Source of the DNA: Mobula birostris
Taxonomy: Eukaryota
DNA length: 64,000 bases
Assembly (NCBI RefSeq): GCF_030028105.1
Contig: NC_092386.1
Coordinates: forward strand, 14,687,258-14,751,257
Direction of reading: 5' to 3'
Shown: piece by piece, positions 5,288 to 28,919 of the stretch
Position numbering within the stretch: position 1 is the stretch's first letter
How the letters are laid out: each line of letters starts with the position of its first letter
Made by a program: the position numbers and the translations under genes
Notes under the pieces: model-generated
What the model was told of the DNA's origin: nothing
Database searches by the model: none
What the model saw: the letters and a program-made list of their open reading frames with translations, nothing else

Positions 5288-6850
5288 TAGAAAAGTACAG
5301 CACAGAAACAGGCTCTTTGGCCCATCTGGTTCCTGCTGAACCATTTAAACTGCCTACTCCCATCGACCTGCACCAGGATCATAGCCCTCCATACCCCTAT
5401 CATCCATGTACCTATCCAAACTTCCCTTAAACTCACATGCATCACTTATGCTGCCAGCTCGTTCAACACCCTCAGAATGAAGAGGTTTCCCCTCATGTTC
5501 CCCTTGAACTTCTCACCTTTCATACTTAACCCAAGACCTCTAGTTGTAGTCCCACCCAATTTCAGTGGAAAAAGCCTGCCTGCACTTACTCTATCTATAC
5601 CCCTCATAATTTTTGTATACCTCTATCAAATCTCCTCTCAATCTTTTACATTACCTATTCAATCTTTTCTTATAACTCAGGTCCGCCAAACCCAGCAACA
5701 ATCTTGTAGTTTTTCTTTGTACTCTTTCAACCTTATTTACGTATTTCTGTAGGTAGGTGACCAAAGCTGCACAATGTACTCTAAATTAGGCATCACAAAT
5801 GTCTTATGTAACTTCTTTGCTTTATGAAGGCCAATGTGCCATAAGTTTTCTTTATGACCCTATCTACCTGTAACACCACTTTCAACAAACTATAGTCCTG
5901 TATTCCCAGATCCCTTTGTTCTACCACACTCCTCAGTGTCTGACCATTCACCGTGTAAGACCTACCCTGGTTGGTCCTACTGAAGTGCTAACCCTCACAC
6001 TGTCTGCATTAAATTCCATCTGTCATGTTTCAGCCCATTTTCCAGGCTGGTCCAGATCCCACTGCAATCCATGATGGTCTTCCTCGCTGTCCACTACACC
6101 CCTAGTCTTGGTGTCATCCACAAATTTGCTGATCCAGTTTACCACATAATCATCCAAGTCATTGATATAGATGACAAATAACAGTGGACCCAGCACCAGT
6201 CCCTGCAGCACTCCACTCGTCACAGGCCTCCAATCAGAGAGACAACCATCTACTACCACTCTCTGGCCTCTCCCCCGAAGCCAATGTCTAATCCAACTTG
6301 CCACCTCGTCTTGAATGCTGAGTGACTGAACCTTCTTGACCAACTTCCCATGCAGGACCTTATCAAAATCCATGTAAATAACATCCACTGCCTTGCCTTC
6401 ATCAACTTTCCTGATAATTTCCTCGAAAGACCCTGCAAGATTCGTTAGACATGACCTACCATGCATGAAGCCACGCTGATTATCCTTAATCAGTCCATGT
6501 CTATCTAAATGCTTATATATCTGGTCCCTCAGAATACCTACTGATAACTATTGGAATACTATTGTACTCAACCGCTTCCTCTGGCAGCTGGTTCCATATG
6601 GTCACCACTCTCTCCTAAGGTCCCTTTTAAATCTTTCCCCTCTCACCCTAAACCTATGCTTCCTAGTGCTGGTTTCCCCCACTCTGGGGAAAAGACTGTC
6701 ACCTCTCATAAATGTAAATATTTCTATAAGCTCGCTCCTCATTCTCGTACATTCCATGGAATAAAGACCTAACCTGGCCAACCTCTCCCTATAACTCACC
6801 CCCACCCCCCGGAGTCCTGGCGACACGGTTGTACATCTTCCCTGCACTTG
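5288..6850 (-). mobile_element. Decayed CR1 LINE fragments (RT and 3' end)
   Basis: ORF 6023-6466(-) GRSCLTNL...VTSGVLQGLVLGPLLF...SKFVDDTK. ORF 6602-6904(-) SYRERLARLGLYS...HRFRVRGERF. Confidence 0.85.
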
Positions 6851-7119
6851 TTCCTCACCCTGAATGGGGTAATTGATCAAAAATGCATTGAAGTGGGCAA
6901 ACAACTTGGTCTTCCAGTGAACTTGGTACGGTCAGAGCGAGTTAGTAAGTAATTAACTAAATGCATGGTTAGTTATAAATATACAGGTACATTCATATAT
7001 AATTAATTTACAATAAACAATTATTTATATTTGTTTTAACAAGTACAAAACTGTGTGTGTATAACTTCCACAAACATACATAAATACAACTCTATCAGTA
7101 AGTCGGTCTTCTTCAGTTA

Positions 7120-7759: not shown

Positions 7760-8220
7760 GTTCCTACACTGAGTGTTCCTGTCCACAGCTCTTCCCATCT
7801 ACAGTTCTTCCCACAGTTCCTGCCCACAGCCCTTCCTACAGTGTTCCTGTCGACAACTCTTCCTACAGTGTTCCTGTCTACAGCCCTTCTACAGTGTTCC
7901 TGTCTACAGCCCTTCTACAGTGTTCCTGTCTACAGCTCTTCCTACAGTATTCCCGTCCACAGCCCTTCCTACAGTGTTCCTGTCTACAGCCATTCCTACA
8001 GTGTTCCCTTCTACAGCCCTTCCTACAATGTTCCTGTCTACAGCTCTTCCTACAGTGTTCCTGTCTATAGCTCTTCCTACAGTGTTCCTGTCCACAGCCA
8101 TTCCTACAGTGTTCCTGTCCACAGCCATTCCTACAGTGTTCCTGTCTACAGCCCTTTCCCATCTACAGCTCTTCCTACAGTGTTCCTGTCTACAGCTCCA
8201 GCTCTTCCTGTCTACAGCTC
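7760..8220. repeat. 27-bp minisatellite (TTCCTACAGTGTTCCTGTCTACAGCYM), about 16 units
   Basis: Direct tandem units visible. They produce the repetitive ORFs (SSSYSVPVY / TALPTVFLS) in the ORF track. Confidence 0.92.
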
Positions 8221-17420: not shown

Positions 17421-19585
17421 AGAAACATAGAAAGCCTACAGCACAATACAGGCTCTTCGGCCCACAAAGCTGTGTCGAACATATCCTGACCTTAAAAATT
17501 ACCTAGTATTACCCATAGCCCTCTATTTTCCTGAGCTCCATATACCTGTCTAGGAGTCTCTTAAAAGACCCTATCACATCCGCCTCCACCACCGTCACCG
17601 GCAGCCCATTCCACGCACTCACCACTCTCTGCGTAAAAAAACTTACCACTGATATCTCCTCTGTACCTACTTCCAAGCACCTTAAAAGTGTGCCCTCTAC
17701 TGTTAGCCATTTCAGCCCTAGGAAAAAGCCTCTGACTATCCACACGATCAATGCCTCTCACCATCGTATACACCTCTATCAGGTCACTTCTCATCCTCTG
17801 TCGCTCCAAGGAAAAAAGGTCGAGTTCACTCAAACTATGCTCATAAGGCATGCTCTCCAATCCAGGCAACATCCTTGTAAGTCTCCTCTGTACCCTTTCT
17901 ATGGTTTCCACATCCTTCCTATAGTGAGGTGACCTGAACTGAGCACAGTACTCCAAGTGGGGTCTGACCAGGGTCCTATATAGCTGCAACATTACCTCTC
18001 GGCTCCTAAACTCACTTCCATGAAGGCCAATGCACCATATGCCTTCTTAACCAGAGAGTCAACCTGTGCAGCAGCTTTGAGTGTCCTATGGACTCGGACC
18101 CCAAGATCCCTCTGATCCTCCACACTGCCAAGAGTCTTATCATTAATACTATATTCTGTCATCATATTTGACCTATCAAAATTAACCACTTCACACTTAT
18201 CTGGGTTGAACTCCATCTGCCATTTCTCAGCCCAGTTTTGCATGCTATCAATGTCCCGCTATAACCTCTGACAGCCCTCCACACTATCCACAACACCTCC
18301 AACCTTTGTGTCATCAGCAAATTTACTAACCCATCCCTCCACTTCCTCATCCAGGTCATTTGTAAAAATCACGAAGAGTAGGGGTCCCAGAACAGATCCC
18401 TGGGGCACACCACAGGTGACTGACCTCCATGCAGAATATGACCCATCTACAATCACTCTTTGCCTTCTGTGGGCAAGCCAGTTCTGGATCCACAAAGCAA
18501 TTTCCCCTTGGATCCCATGCCTCCTTACTTTCTCAATAAGCCTTGCATTGGGTAGCTTGTCAACTGCCTTGCTGAAATCCATATACACTACATCTACTGC
18601 TCTACCATCATCAATGTGTCTAGTCACATCCTCAAAAAATTCAATCAGGCTTGTAAGGCACGACCTGCTTTTCACAAAGCCATGCTGACTATTCCTATTC
18701 ATATTATGCCTCTCCAAATGTTCATAATTCCTGCCTCTCAGGATCTTCTCCATCAACTTACCAACCACTGAAGTAAGACTCACCGGTCTATAATTTCCTG
18801 GGGTATCTCTACTCCCTTTCTTGAATAATGGAACAACATCCGCAATACTCCAATCCTCCGGAACCTCTCCCATCCCCATTGATGGTGGAAAGATCAACGC
18901 TGGAGGATCCGCAATCTCCTCCCTCACCTCCCACAGTAGCCTGGGTTACATCTCGACCAGTCCCAGTGACTTATCCAACTTGATGCTTTCCAAAAGCGCC
19001 TGCACATCCTCTTTCATAATATCTACATGCTCAAGCTTTTCAGTCCACTGTAAATCATCCCTATAATCGCCAAGATCCTTTTCTGTAGTGAATACTGAAG
19101 CAAAGTACTCATTAAGTACGTCTGCTATCTCCTCCGGTTCCATACACACTTTTCCACTGTCACACTTGATTGGTCCTATTCTCTCACGTCCTCTCCTCTT
19201 GCTCTTCACATACTTGCAGAATGCCTTGGAGTTTTCCTTAATCCTGTCCGCCAAGGCCTTCTCATGGCCCCTTCTGGCTCTCCTAATTTCTTTCTTGAGC
19301 TCCTTCCTGCTAGCCTTATAATCTTCTAGCTCTCGATCATTACCTTGCGTTTTGAACCTTTCATAAGCTCTTCTTTTCTTCTTGACTAGATTTACAACAG
19401 CCTTTGTACACCATGGTTCCTGTACCCTACCATCCTTTCCCTGTCTCATTGGAATGTACCTATGCAGAACTCTACACAAATATCCCCTGAACCTTTGCCA
19501 CATTTCTTCTGTACTTTTCCCTGAGAAAAGTACGGAATATCTGTTTCCAATTTATGCTTCCAAGTTCCTGCCTGATAGCCTCAAG
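17421..19585 (-). mobile_element. CR1 LINE, about 2.1-kb 3' part, in AK6 intron 3; frameshifted
   Basis: ORFs 18946-19503, 18259-18927 (NYRPVSLTS, GVPQGSVLGPLLF, KFADDTK), 17992-18243 and 17561-17992 (LVRPHLEYC). Confidence 0.93.
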
Positions 19586-21247: not shown

Positions 21248-21457
<210 letters not shown>

Positions 21458-22939
21458 TTACAGCATCCCTGTGGGAATGCTCCCCACCGACCTCCCAGAG
21501 TGTAGTGTCACAACGCACAACATCAATGCTTTCTCCCTCCCACGAGGATTTACAGTTCCACACGATTGTACCATTCTTTTCATGGTGGTTCAAAATCACA
21601 GACTTCATGATAGATTCCGGTATCTTCCCCCACTATCTCATTGAGCTGACAGGTTTTTAATTTCCAGTTTCTTTTGTGTGTGTGTCTCTCTCTCTCTCCT
21701 TTGTGGTTACATTTGGGACCCTTCAATGTACAGGAAGCATTGCAGCATTTTTTTTTAAACTTTGGCAGATAAAAAGCAAATAATTTACCATCTCTGAAGT
21801 CACCAGTATCAAATGTCATTAGATCCTTGAAATTAATCAATTTTCAAGTTTGCTAACTTCCATTACAATGTTTTTAAAATTAATGCTGGCTTTATTTTAC
21901 TTCCCCATTTCCTTCAGCCTTCACTACTGCTGGGAGTTTTGTTTTTGTATTTTCCCTGTATAATGCAATGTAACCTGCATGCACCACTTGCACTGGCAGC
22001 TCGTTCCACTCTCACAACCCTCTGAGTGAAGAAGTTTCCGCTTGTGTTCCCCTTAAACGTTTCACCTTTCACCCTTAACCCATTACGTCTCGTTGTAGTC
22101 CCACCCAACCTCAGTGGAAAAACCTCATTTACCCTGTCTATACCCTTCATAATTTTTTTTAACCTCCTTCAAATCTCCTCTCAATCTTCTGCGATCTAAG
22201 AAATAAAATTCTGACCTATTCAATAATGCAACAGAACAACACACACAAATGCTGGAGGGATTCAGCAGATCAGGCAGCAAATATGGAGGGGAATAAACAG
22301 TTAACGTTTTGGACTGAGACCCTTCATCATGGATGGGATGGAAGGGGGAAGAAGCCAGAAGCCAATGTAACAGAAAGAGCTTTCTGAAGTTATAGCTAGT
22401 AGAGTAGAGAAAACATTGCATGTAGCTTCTCTCAGTTGTCAGATGTTGTAGCACCCTTAGGAACCTTAACAATACTAGACAAAAGTAGCATAAAAAGTAA
22501 ATCCTCACTGGGAATATATGCTGTCCCCCACTCATATGCATTTGCCACCACTCCTCAATCCACTGACTCCTCCAGCATCTTCAGCAACAAGCAGATTTTT
22601 GTGTCTCCACCAGCATCTTGATTTTTGCCCCTAAGAAAACTCACCCCATGCACAAGCAACAGTTAAAGTAAACTAGCTTGCCCTCCTTTACCCTACCCAG
22701 ACAACCCATCGTACACTCTCCCGGCTGTCCCCACACAAACAGCTCAACCACCACTCCCTACCCTTACCACAATCTCACCCCAATCCAACCCCTCCCCACA
22801 CATCTTTCAGAAAGATATTTGGCGGTCTCTCTATGGTTACTCACGATTCCTCTCCCTCCTTCCCCGATACATCCTACTCCCGCACAATGAGGACATTTGG
22901 CCATCTCTATGTGATAAGACACCACACACATACACGCCT

Positions 22940-25900
22940 CATACATATAAACTCCTGACCCCATACAGATCCCCACCCTCCACCTGAGAGAAGGATATTC
23001 GGCCATCTCTCCATGCTGACAGACACCATACACATAAGCCCCCGGCCCCCATACTCAGACCCACACCCCTCACCTGTGAGCAGGACATTCGGCATCTCTC
23101 CATAGTGACAGACACCATACACATAAACCCCCGGCCCCCATACTCAAACCCACACCCCTCACCTGTGAGGAGGATATTCGGCCGTTTCCCCATGGTGACA
23201 GACACCACACACACATAAACCCCTGGCCCCCATACTCAGACCCACACCCCTCACCTGTGAGCAGGACATTCGGCATCTCTCCATGCTGACAGACACCACA
23301 CACATAAACCCCTGGCCCCCATACTCAAACCCACACCCCTCACCTGTGAGGAGGATATTCGGCCGTTTCCCCATGGTGACAGACACCACACACACACATA
23401 AGCCCCCGGCCCCCATACTCAGACCCACACCCCTCACCTGTGAGCAGGACATTCGGCATCTCTCCATGCTGACAGACACCACACACATAAACCCCTGGCC
23501 CCCATACTCAGACCCACACTCCCCACCCGTGAGAAGGATATTCGACCGTCTCTCTATGGTGACAGACACCACACACATAAACCCCTGGCCCCCATACTCA
23601 AACCCACACCCCTCACCTGTGAGGAGATAAGATCGATTCTCCATGGTGACAGGCACCACACACACATAAACCCCTGGCCCCCATACTCAGACCCACACCC
23701 CTCACCTGTGAGGAGATAAGATCGATTCTCCATGGTGACAGACACCACACACACATAAACCCCTGGCCCCCATACTCAAACCCACACCCCTCACCTGTGA
23801 GGAGATAAGATCGATTCTCCATGGTGACAGGCACCACACACACATACACCCCCGGCCCCCATACTCAGACCCACACCCCTCACCTGTGAGGAGATAAGAT
23901 CAATTCTCCATGGTGACAGGCACCATACACACATAAACCCCTGACCCCCATACTCAGACCCACACCCCTCACCTGTGAGGAGATAAGATCGATTCTCCAT
24001 GGTGACAGGCACCACACACACATAAACCCCTGGCCCCCATACTCAGACCCACACCCCTCACCTGTGAGGAGATAAGATCGATTCTCCATGGTGACAGGCA
24101 CCACACACACATAAACCCCCGGCCCCCATCCTCAGACCCACACCCCTCACCTGTGAGGAGATAAGATCGATTCTCCATGGTGACAGGCACCACACACACA
24201 TAAACCCCCGGCCCCCATCCTCAGACCCACACCCCTCACCTGTGAGGAGATAAGATCGATTCTCCATGGTGACAGGCACCACACACACATAAACCCCCGG
24301 CCCCCATCCTCAGACCCACACCCCTCACCTGTGAGGAGATAAGATCGATTCTCCATGGTGACAGGCACCACACACACATAAACCCCCGGCCCCCATACTC
24401 AGACCCACACCCCTCACCTGTGAGGAGATAAGATCGATTCTCCATGGTGACAGGCACCACACACACATAAACCCCCGGCCCCCATACTCAGACCCACACC
24501 CCTCACCTGTGAGGAGATAAGATCGATTCTCCATGGTGACAGGCACCATACACACATAAACCCCCGGCCCCCGTACTCAGACCCACAGCCCTCACCTGTG
24601 AGGAGATAAGATCGATTCTCCATGCTGACAGGCACCACACACACATAAACCCCCGGCCCCCGTACTCAGACCCACACCCCTCACCTGTGAGGAGATAAGA
24701 TCGATTCTCCATGGTGACAGGCTCCACACACACATAAACCCCCGGCCCCCGTACTCAGACCCACACCCCTCACCTGTGAGGAGATAAGATCGATTCTCCA
24801 TGGTGACAGGCACCACACACACATAAACCCCCGGCCCCCATACTCAGACCCACACCCCTCACCTGTGAGGAGATAAGATCGATTCTCCATGGTGACAGGC
24901 ACCACACACACATAAACCCCCGGCCCCCATACTCAGACCCACACCCCTCACCTGTGAGGAGATAAGATCGATTCTCCATGGTGACAGGCACCACACACAC
25001 ATAAACCCCCGGCCCCCATACTCAGACCCACACCCCTCACCTGTGAGGAGATAAGATCGATTCTCCATGGTGACAGGCACCACACACACATAAACCCCCG
25101 GCCCCCATACTCAGACCCACACCCCTCACCTGTGAGGAGATAAGATCGATTCTCCATGCTGACAGGCACCACACACACATAAACCCCCGGCCCCCATACT
25201 CAGACCCACACCCCTCACCTGTGAGGAGATAAGATCGATTCTCCATGCTGACAGGCACCACACACACATAAACCCCCGGCCCCCATACTCAGACCCACAC
25301 CCCTCACCTGTGAGGAGATAAGATCGATTCTCCATGCTGACAGGCACCACACACACATAAACCCCCGGCCCCCATACTCAGACCCACACCCCTCACCTGT
25401 GAGGAGATAAGATCGATTCTCCATGCTGACAGGCACCACACACACATAAACCCCCGGCCCCCATACTCAGACCCACACCCCTCACCTGTGAGGAGATAAG
25501 ATCGATTCTCCATGCTGACAGGCACCACACACACATAAACCCCCGGCCCCCATACTCAGACCCACACCCCTCACCTGTGAGGAGATAAGATCGATTCTCC
25601 ATGGTGACAGGCACCACACACACATAAACCCCCGGCCCCCATACTCAGACCCACACCCCTCACCTGTGAGGAGATAAGATCGATTCTCCATGGTGACAGG
25701 CACCACACACACATAAACCCCCGGCCCCCATACTCAGACCCACACCCCTCACCTGTGAGGAGATAAGATCGATTCCCCATGGTGACAGGCACCACACACA
25801 CATAAACCCCCGGCCCCCATACTCAGACCCACACCCCTCACCTGTGAGGAGATAAGATCGATTCTCCATGGTGACAGGCACCACACACACATAAACCCCC

Positions 25901-26682
25901 GGCCCCCATACTCAGACCCACACCCCTCACCCGTGAGGAGATAAGATCAATTCTCCATGGTGACAGGCACCACACACACATAAACCCCCGGCCCCCATAC
26001 TCAGACCCACACCCCTCACCCGTGAGGAGATAAGATCGATTCTCCATGGTGACAGGCACCACACACACATAAACCCCCGGCCCCCATACTCAGACCCACA
26101 CCCCTCACCTGTGAGGAGATAAGATCGATTCTCCATGGTGACAGGCACCACACACACATAAACCCCCGGCCCCCATACTCAGACCCACACCCCTCACCTG
26201 TGAGGAGATAAGATCGATTCTCCATGGTGACAGGCACCACACACACATAAACCCCCGGCCCCCATACTCAGACCCACACCCCTCACCTGTGAGGAGATAA
26301 GATCGATTCTCCATGGTGACAGGCACCACACACACATAAACCCCCGGCCCCCATACTCAGACCCACACCCCTCACCTGTGAGGAGATAAGATCGATTCTC
26401 CATGGTGACAGACACCACACACATAAACCCCCGGCCCCCATACTCAGACCCACACCCCTCACCTGTGAGGAGATAAGATCGATTCTCCATGGTGACAGGC
26501 ACCACACACACATAAACCCCCGGCCCCCGTACTCAGACCCACACCCCTCACCTGTGAGGAGATAAGATCGATTCTCCATGGTGACAGGCACCACACACAC
26601 ATAAACCCCCGGCCCCCATACTCAGACCCACACCCCTCACCTGTGAGGAGGATATTCGGCCGTCTCTCCATGGTGACAGACA
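22940..26682 (-). repeat. 89-bp tandem array (about 42 units) derived from AK6 exon 1 plus the start of intron 1
   Basis: Minus-strand consensus GTGAGGGGTGTGGGTCTGAGTATGGGGGCCGGGGGTTTATGTGTGTGTGGTGCCTGTCACCATGGAGAATCGATCTTATCTCCTCACAG. ORF starts recur every 89 nt. The promoter-proximal unit contains the true exon. Confidence 0.97.
26641..26671 (-). CDS. AK6: AK6 coding exon 1: MERRPNILLT(G)
   Basis: GTCACC-ATGGAGAGACGGCCGAATATCCTCCTCACAG|GTGAG. Phase 1 joins exon 2 to give [14 protein letters not shown], as in human [17 protein letters not shown]. Total CDS is 519 nt (172 aa). Confidence 0.93.
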
Positions 26683-26850
26683 CGAGCTCCTACCCGTGGG
26701 GTCTTTCGCTCGACTTGAGCCACCTCCCTTTGCGTCACGGCTCGTCCTGCTCACTGCCGAAATGATCAGAAACATTTCACGCACAAACAGACCACTCCCA
26801 ATGATTCAAAGTTGATTCTGTAGGAAACAGTGGCTCTCCTGGTACCGTCG
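26683..26850. promoter_or_regulatory. Bidirectional AK6/RAD17 promoter
   Basis: Short CpG-containing unique segment between the AK6 ATG and RAD17 exon 1. CRE-like TGCGTCA near 26731, CCAAT at 26798-26802, adjacent CHR-like TTCAAA (TTTGAA on minus) at 26805-26810. Confidence 0.7.
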
Positions 26851-26977
26851 CTGCATCAAGGAACACAATGGGCAAAATCCTGGACAACTAAAATACGGTT
26901 GAGAGCTGAGACTGGAGAAAGGGAGGACCTCTTGGCGAGCTGGTGTTTGTTAAAAAATCGGAGTGAGAAGAGAATTG
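26830..26977 (+). other. RAD17: Probable RAD17 non-coding exon 1 (start approximate)
   Basis: Strong donor TTG|GTGAGT at 26977/26978, followed by GT-rich intron-like sequence. TSS not determinable. Confidence 0.55.
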
Positions 26978-28919
26978 GTGAGTGTGAAGTGTGTGTAATG
27001 TGGAGTGTTATGTGTCTCCTGGGGTGTGTAACGTGTAATGTTTGTATTAGGCTGTGTAATGGGCTAGCTGGGGTGTCCGGGGGCTGGGCTGTCATGTATC
27101 CCGGTACATAATAGTGTGCTTTCAGTCAGCTGGAGAGAGTTTTGCTCTGTTCTGCGAACCTGAACACTCAGACACTCGTCCCATTTCCATCTTCCACCTT
27201 CACTGCTTCTCTGCCTCATTTCAATTCGAGTGAAATCAGACCCTCTACGTCTGTGCTCTCACTGCCACTCCCTCTGCTCCTTTCCTCTGCCATATAATTT
27301 GATTTCTATTTCACTCATTTCTGCCGAAAGCTCCTTGACCTGAGACATAATTTGTTTTTATTGTGTTCACTGAAGCAGGAGAGCCCTGTATATATGTAGC
27401 TTTTTTCCATTTTTATTGTAGTTCTCTGTGTCAGAAGTGATGGTAATAAACTATTTTCCTTTTTAAATCATACAGAATTAATAATCTTCATAACAAAATT
27501 GTGAAACTATTTAAATTATGTGTACAAATTTTTCTTACTGTGGCTTGCCTGTGTCCAGCTATTTAATAGCTGACTAAATTATTTGATTGCAGTTTACAAT
27601 TTCCTACACTTAGAAAGTAGCTTGCGTAGTGCTACATTGTTGTATCCCATTTGACAATTTTAGTTAATCATTGATTTGTTGCAAATTACATAATGTCCTT
27701 GATTTTCTTTCTGGATTCTCTTTGTACCTGATGGATGGAGGACTGTGAACATCTGTGGTAGTTTCTCACAGCAAACAAATTGTATGAGGAAAAAGATTGT
27801 ATGGATTTTAATGAAGTTGATGAATATGAACCATTCAAGGAATTAAAGATACTCAAAAACGGTTCTTTCTTCAGTCCCCTCCTGCTTTTGGCTACAACCA
27901 TGGACATTATTTACATGTTGTCTGTTATTTTTAATTATATAATTTAAGACTAGTAACTTGGTAGGGGTTGTTTGATACAACTGAAAATAAACTTTCTGTA
28001 AAGCACTTTCAACCATTGTGTCAGTGTGCAACTGGGTATAACCTGACCACCAGTAAGTTCATGATGTCAATATCTTTTCTGAGCTGAATAGTTATTCCTG
28101 GTGAACCAAGTAGAAGATTTACAACTATATTTTGGGAATGTAGTTTCTGCAACAGGCCTCAGTTGTTGTATCTTTAAAAACCACACAGTGCAATTTTGCA
28201 CTTGAATGAACATTGATTGCTCTTGGTAATTTTTTTTCTCTCTTTTTCTTTTTCTTTTCCCCCTTCCCTCTTCTTTCATTTCCCACTTGGCCTCTTACCT
28301 CTTTTCCTCATCTGCCTATCACCTCCCGCTGGTGGCCCTTCTTCCCTTTCTCCCATGGTCCACTCTCTTCTCTGATCAGATTCCTTCCTCTCCAACCCTT
28401 TACCTTTCCCGCCCACCTGGCCTCACCTATCACCTTCTAGCTTGTCCTCCTTCCCCTTCCCCCTTGCTTTTATTTGGTCATCTTCCCCCTTACTTTTCAG
28501 TACTGATGACCAGAAATGGCAACTGTTTAAGTTTAAAGTTCAAAGTATATTTATTCAAAGTATGCATACTATATACAACCTTGAGACTCGTCACCTTACG
28601 GACAGCCACAAAACAAAGAAACCCAATAGAACCCATCTTTTAAAAAAAGACCATTGAACATCCAATGTGCAGAAAAACAACAAGTCACGCAAACTATAAA
28701 AGTAAGCAAGTAGTATTTAGAGCTGAAGTTCACGAAAGTGACTCCACAGCCACAGCTGATTTAGAAGCCTGTCAGTTGCACTCTACGGCCATAGTTCAGC
28801 ACAGAGATGAGTATATCAGCGGAGCAGAGAGCTGAACCAGCCCATCCCTCGCCTCTGGCTCCAACACCCTGGCCTTTTAATTTTGGTCCACCACTTAAAT
28901 CATTCAAACCTCATTCACT

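Follow-up and report, generated by a model that had tools for sequence, protein, structure and literature searches.

A minisatellite of exon 1/intron 1 boundary copies in AK6 of Mobula birostris and the removal of the intron that carries it

How a first intron is removed when most of its length consists of copies of its own donor is the question raised by AK6 in Mobula birostris, in which the exon 1/intron 1 boundary is reiterated in units of 89 nt. The original prediction, made on the window analysed here (a stretch of 64,000 nucleotides, in a genome of 4.0 Gb), read each unit as a GT...AG mini-intron and the whole array as a candidate ladder of recursive splice sites, whose use would explain how about 40 decoy donors are tolerated.

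The AK6 locus and the anatomy of the array

AK6 lies on the minus strand in five exons and encodes a protein of 172 residues. Exon 1 (26641..26719, minus strand, its 5' end reaching at least 26719) holds 31 coding nucleotides at 26671-26641, which read MERRPNILLT plus G, agree with the ray AK6 proteins P0129 and P0130 at 11 of 11 residues, and are covered by spliced contigs running on into exon 2. The true donor of intron 1, CAG|GTGAGG (26635..26643, minus strand), is left by contigs of three of four sequencing runs, which resume in exon 2 (21334..21426, minus strand). Intron 1 (21427..26640, minus strand) measures 5214 nt, of which the array makes up about 70%. Exons 3-5 (19753-19695, 16452-16307 and 15369-15183, minus strand) were placed by tblastn with ray AK6 proteins, and exons 1, 4 and 5 are identical to the Mobula birostris AK6 protein (P0130) at 11/11, 49/49 and 63/63 residues, respectively.

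Several features of the surroundings may be recorded here. Exon 2 has an AG|GT acceptor of its own, as do three of the four real AK6 acceptors in all (21426, 19753 and 16452, minus strand). RAD17, on the plus strand, stands head to head with AK6; the spliced contig ends of the two genes (26700-26719 and 26837, within window 26700-26977) are about 120-140 nt apart, and the first RAD17 donor is at 26978. Reading frames at 713-1879, 6023-6931 and 17561-19551 are presumably fragments of LINE reverse transcriptase, the last group sitting in AK6 intron 3, and a 27-bp tandem repeat of 13.4 copies (7798-8156) is found downstream of the gene.

TRF reports a single array at 23008-26650 with a period of 89, 40.9 copies and 95% matches. 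Read on the minus strand, it contains 42 junctions, namely the true donor and 41 units, with 38 CAG|GTGAGG, two CGG|GTGAGG, one CGG|GTGGGG and one CAG|GTGGAG. The 34 units nearest to exon 1 (23617..26640, minus strand) are young and homogenised: 33 measure 89 nt and one 87 nt, they differ from the majority sequence by a mean of 0.9 positions, and among the 33 units of 89 nt only 14 of 89 columns vary and 13 units are identical to the majority. Their ends read ATCTCCTCACAG in 32 units, with CAG, and ATCTCCTCACGG in the other two (junctions 26020 and 25931), with CGG. Seven older units (22984..23616, minus strand) of 89-94 nt have kept an exon-like end that resembles the true end of exon 1, one of them closing with CGG, and decayed remnants of further units form the distal end of the array (approximately 22780..22983, minus strand).

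Each unit begins with about 49 nt of intron start, in which the G-runs of the original prediction were found to number four, and continues with a copy of about 40 nt of exon 1 that brings along the Kozak context, the ATG and 28 coding-type bases, a component on which that prediction was silent. Every unit also fits a relaxed G-quadruplex pattern, and such patterns are a correlate of minisatellite instability. The expected pyrimidine tract-CAG|GTGAG junction is present in 32 of the 34 young units, and the amplified variant is indeed the richer in pyrimidines, with 11 of 12 positions from -16 to -5 in the young unit against nine of 12 at the true exon end. The description of every unit as GT...AG applies to most of them, which end in CAG, and fails at three of the 42 junctions, where the AG is absent.

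In 32 of the 34 young units (23617-26640, minus strand) the copied ATG, in good context, opens a frame that continues into exon 2 and reads MENRSYLLT or MGNRSYLLT plus G, while the other two contain a stop. The units were considered as alternative first exons for this reason and rejected, there being neither a supporting transcript nor a listed protein.

The identity of 13 of the 33 units of 89 nt to the majority sequence would also be expected if the array were a short repeat collapsed or over-expanded in assembly. This explanation is highly improbable, because variants cluster in neighbouring units, a gradient of decay exists, and an independent run (X7) holds related units.

Origin, acceptor quality and constraint of the unit end

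The array is a minisatellite in which the boundary between exon 1 and intron 1 of AK6 has been copied over and over, and the AG|GT junction arose incidentally, through duplication of an exon with a CAG end. Both the AG|GT and most of the tract in each unit come from the copied donor and from the Ile-Leu-Leu-Thr codons before it, since tract-CAG spells the conserved I-L-L-T of AK6; of the 103 proteins with a GTPGxGK motif, among 135 compared, 65 have PN[IV]L[LI]T in front of it. The AG|GT alone is within chance for a copied donor, as AG|GT is shared by four of the 17 real acceptors of the window. In the sequence of events that we infer, a G-rich segment across the donor would have been duplicated by slippage or unequal exchange, a later single change would have given a unit end richer in T, and this variant would have reached 34 copies through ordinary repeat turnover. 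A micro-inversion was considered as the origin of the young 11-nt segment, and the alignment gave it no clear support.

The relative age of the two unit types can be judged from run X7, which is likely to be DNA of a relative because it covers promoter and intron with many differences. It holds old-type units, a CGG junction without AG at 23527 (16 of 16 letters identical to 23516-23531) and, at a loose end, 30 of 30 letters of the decayed distal part (22940-22969). The array must therefore be old, and the young variant is likely to represent a later sweep.

To judge the unit end as an acceptor, four small local models, two of them four-letter and the others pyrimidine/purine, were trained on the 17 real acceptors of AK6 and RAD17, with leave-one-out scoring and 2825 AGs as decoys. 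The young unit beats 10, 8, 15 and 15 of the 17 real acceptors in the four models, and its score is reached by 30, 38, 4 and 8 of the 2825 decoys. The true end of exon 1 beats 0, 2, 11 and 12 real acceptors and the old units 0, 2, 10 and 11, so that in the two four-letter models the young unit stands far above both; the size of the gain made by the variant depends on whether T is weighted above C. Since the true exon end already beats 11-12 of 17 real acceptors when pyrimidines are merely told from purines, the acceptor likeness is largely inherited. Among decoy YAG sites in the introns of the window, 13 of 1352 reach 11 pyrimidines in the 12 positions from -16 to -5 and 151 of 1352 reach nine. 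A random 11-nt replacement matches the young score in 3-14% of 20,000 draws, and the improvement is a single event that was then copied.

Scoring of the junction as both 3' and 5' splice site, which the original prediction had asked for, thus gave a good donor and an acceptor within the real range in all four local models rather than a very low score, and the junction is sequence-competent. By the same models, the layout of a recursive site, with an acceptor motif directly abutting a donor motif, is present in 32 of 34 young units. No convincing branch-point consensus had been recognised earlier; branch-like words are nevertheless present as candidates, yTnAy at -51 and -12 and TnA at -31 of the unit end, matched by sequence alone. 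Another AG lies at -24, upstream of the unit-end AG. A 7-bp hairpin between the tract and the following G-run is predicted at each junction, the true donor included, and real acceptors, at 0.10-0.80, span the accessibility of 0.33-0.36 that is predicted for the tract. In global folding, exon 1 with three units was unremarkable (z -0.21).

Variation among the copies was used to look for constraint on this acceptor. The AG has been lost at three of 42 junctions and the GT at none; the 14 variable columns include the A of this AG (expectation for the two columns 0.31, P 0.29). The tract from -16 to -5 has no variable column among 12, against 1.9 expected (P 0.11), and GTGAGG none among six (P 0.35), so that no test of column conservation for AG, tract or GTGAGG is significant among the 33 young units. 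The AG thus seems unprotected in the array.

Arrays of this kind were then counted genome-wide. Triplets of CAGGTGAG at 68-98 nt spacing number 9379, 2.8 times the 3357 of a reversed control, a count that takes overlapping matches and is dominated by long arrays; the 100 matches listed fall in three loci, all without a tract. When a tract of seven pyrimidines is required, eight matches are obtained at 46-76 nt spacing against seven in the control, and with such a tract before YAG|GTRAG at 77-106 nt there are 34 against 21, of which 31 of the 34 are the AK6 locus itself. By these counts, arrays with a tract are not a solution in general use in this genome, and the AK6 locus is a rare case. None of 17 other donor positions in the window, several of them placed only to within a few bases and one misplaced, recurs downstream.

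Transcripts and the route of intron removal

Assembled contigs of four of the ten listed runs were compared with exon 1 plus one unit; none of the ten is catalogued as RNA, the nature of those compared being judged from the presence of an exon-exon join, and they may come from related species. In X1, X4 and X5, which represent three studies and three organisms, a contig covers the true exon 1 with 0, 2 and 2 differences, respectively, and continues with 30 letters identical to window 21395-21424, in exon 2. The main mature form is the true exon 1 joined to exon 2, with the whole array absent. These contigs are compatible both with one-step and with recursive removal. Rare forms are dropped in contigs, and the three organisms may or may not carry young units. 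That the contigs of X1, X4 and X5 lie outside the repeat unit, and the pieces of X7 outside the young-type segment 26552-26572, is a gap in coverage rather than evidence.

The reading we prefer, with a probability of roughly 0.6, is that a single splice from the first donor to exon 2 removes intron 1 in most cases, and that the 41 donors of the copies, like their AGs, stay unused. The first donor adjoins the cap and is transcribed first, both of which would favour its choice. It would prevail as the most upstream functional donor, as proposed by analogy with human F7, whose donor TGG|gtgggt lacks an AG: in the available part of PMC1557585, splicing keeps to the most upstream functional donor alone, whether there is one monomer or as many as twelve, and the addition of up to 12 monomers left donor choice unchanged. 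Because F7 tolerates reiterated donors in this way, the tolerance of decoy donors needs no ratchet. The G-runs are a plausible cause of first-donor choice on which we do not rely, since changes of the G-triplets had no effect in F7 (PMC1557585, same part). One-step removal is favoured by the joins of true exon 1 to exon 2, the losses of AG, the anatomy of the unit, the old core found in a relative and the losses in a similar array described below (L043). Against it count the acceptor scores of the young units, the invariant tract and the rarity of tract arrays; the AK6 locus, which dominates the few tract-bearing arrays in the genome, is atypical as a donor array.

The ladder of the original prediction, as the main route, would remove the array stepwise or in jumps through a reconstituted CAG|GTGAG, the better acceptor having spread by neutralising decoys; in its strongest form, a single change made an 89-nt mini-intron that swept to 34 copies as an eraser of the array, with 32 recursive sites in use. 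We regard both forms as unlikely. The geometry of the unit agrees that splicing to any unit AG restores the donor without adding a base, the variant that expanded has the better acceptor score in all four models, and the tract and GTGAGG columns are invariant among 33 units, though not significantly so. Against this stand the origin of the improvement in one copied event, with a chance of 3-14%, the loss of AG at three of 42 junctions, and the old-type units, poor in the four-letter models, which predate the young variant and are present in a relative. The genome holds no excess of tract arrays (eight against seven in the control at 46-76 nt), and a selected ladder is further opposed by the sister array L043, which lacks AG|GT in three of five copies. 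The reconstituted donor is also equal to the downstream one. According to the accessible text of PMC6224609, vertebrate recursion begins with definition of an RS-exon, and for this exon to be skipped, as efficient recursion requires, the reconstituted donor has to win over the downstream one; repression by the exon junction complex acts on the reconstituted site.

Since the two donors are identical, the outcome of an internal splice could equally be an mRNA with a unit retained, and retention of the first one, two, three or four units leads to a stop after 53, 80, 70 or 70 codons. For this reason the array cannot be called self-neutralising from its sequence, as had been proposed. Of the ladder proposal, then, the sequence competence stands, on the scores and on precedents in PMC10809524, PMC3265369 and PMC10156609 (as far as their available parts go); its role as the reason why some 40 decoy donors are tolerated finds no support, in view of F7 without AG, the seemingly unprotected AG and the repression by the exon junction complex (PMC1557585 and PMC6224609, in part).

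A weaker form of internal splicing, in which some transcripts lose whole units at random through dual-specific or recursive junctions, is possible, if still doubtful. It would plausibly be an unselected by-product of a good acceptor, on which the intron does not depend. The unit scores within the range of real sites, the branch-like words at -31 and -51, and the 32 near-identical chances per transcript speak for it, as do the consulted portions of three reports: 6-16% of transcripts showed splicing of an AGGT segment that had been duplicated (PMC3265369), exon ends acted as recursive acceptors in 10 cases (PMC10156609), and the tandem AGGT sites of UBC undergo splicing (PMC10809524). The AG at -24, ahead of the end AG, weighs against it; the predicted 7-bp hairpin of tract and G-run might do so too, but the accessibility of the tract, inside the real-acceptor range, does not discriminate.

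Donor choice might instead be leaky, the next one or two donors being used so that units are retained, early stops arise and transcripts decay, with the length of the array tuning AK6 output. The 38 identical CAG|GTGAGG donors would allow this, CBS and 6-16 offer a precedent in the text available from PMC1557585, and the early-stop products would be scarce in steady-state RNA. In three runs, however, the contigs pass from the true donor straight to exon 2, and MENRSYLLT, the start encoded by the unit, begins none of the 18 AK6 proteins examined; we hold leaky choice to be quite improbable.

Related arrays and known systems

One further locus of the same genome appears to share the architecture of the AK6 array. 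At L043:1214-1900 (G000:C29), a coding stretch for a WD40 repeat (PF00400, E 1.2e-13), which from its frame and donor would be a spliced exon, ends in CAG|GTGAG; behind it lie 5.7 copies of a 71-bp tandem unit, which reiterate the last 25 or so nucleotides of the stretch together with the donor, and the AG|GT is lost in three of five copies. Other loci were noted beside it. At L041:1140-1750 (G000:C13), a likely short exon ending in CAG|GTGAGCACC precedes degenerate units of 25-27 bp that begin with GTGAGCACC and close with a pyrimidine tract and CAG; these may be a further array that stems from a donor. At L013:1503-1740 (G000:C1), nine CAG|GTGAG junctions at 26-nt spacing follow a candidate first exon, a stretch that contains CpG. 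At L037:1460-1720 (G000:C7), a 51-bp array with tract-YAG|GTGAG junctions lies inside what we take to be a retroelement coding remnant, which implies that junction arrays of the AK6 type arise away from real donors too.

A literature search found no report of the AK6 array locus. Recursion is mentioned in PMC13196383, in the part available, only for long neural genes, and the lariat pipeline of PMC10156609 is described in its accessible text as dropping any site that overlaps a repeat or has an annotated site within 100 nt, so that arrays of this class would be unexamined by that route. If the ladder were the main route after all, a vertebrate first intron would hold a selected ladder for recursive splicing that was born from a repeat, the very kind of case that lariat pipelines with repeat filters discard. 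The array is in any case a useful test object, as young units of acceptor quality, T-poorer old units and natural units without AG stand side by side in it, and the intermediates to be expected differ between first-donor scanning, dual-specific use and recursion.

Comparison with intron gain by duplication of AGGT segments (PMC3265369, in the part available) reveals a shared principle, in that a duplicated AG|GT creates a GT...AG interval. The duplicated site in AK6 is, however, an existing donor: the array begins at the donor of exon 1, the encoded protein aligns collinearly with AK6 proteins of rays, and an existing intron has been lengthened, with no new exon-exon boundary. The human UBC gene, with its tandem dual-specific AGGT sites, is closer in that its units are also bounded by AG|GT as potential donor and acceptor, and removal of a whole unit leaves the junction unchanged; as far as the accessible text of PMC10809524 extends, the units of UBC belong to the coding sequence, keep the frame and have been demonstrated to undergo splicing, whereas those of AK6 are intronic, 89 nt long, out of frame and known from sequence. 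That article was the literature match which joins recursive splice sites, tandem repeats and lariats, and its supplements, on introns in human repeats, may hold closer cases.

Vertebrate recursive splicing with RS-exons, as presented in the available parts of PMC6224609 and PMC10156609, resembles AK6 in having a tract-YAG that abuts a donor, and the downstream donor in AK6, less than 100 nt away, could define an RS-exon in the same manner. Each known RS-site occurs in a single copy and has been defined through intermediates or lariats (same parts of both sources), whereas AK6 offers 32 identical candidate sites in a first intron of 5.2 kb, in which the reconstituted donor equals the downstream one in strength.

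The closest likeness is with human minisatellites whose first monomer spans an exon-intron boundary, of which the available portion of PMC1557585 names F7 IVS7 (37 bp), CBS IVS13, intron 2 of the interferon-inducible 6-16, LMNB2 (100 bp) and PDGF intron 4 (81 bp); F7, LMNB2 and PDGF use the first donor only, and CBS and 6-16 the first three. As in these genes, the first AK6 monomer lies across the boundary and the donor is reiterated identically in the intron (38 of 42 junctions are CAG|GTGAGG); G-runs in the monomer, a similar unit size and a mature mRNA with the first donor are shared as well, the most upstream donor being the one used in three of four runs (contigs, main form only). The AK6 array differs in following a first exon, in copying the start codon, in its 41 copies against 5-25, and in a unit end of CAG with a tract that is acceptor-like by score, where F7 ends in TGG. 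The evidence for first-donor scanning is mammalian and concerns an internal exon; most likely, the AK6 array is one more boundary-spanning minisatellite, in a cartilaginous fish, at which first-donor preference tolerates some 40 identical decoys in a housekeeping gene.
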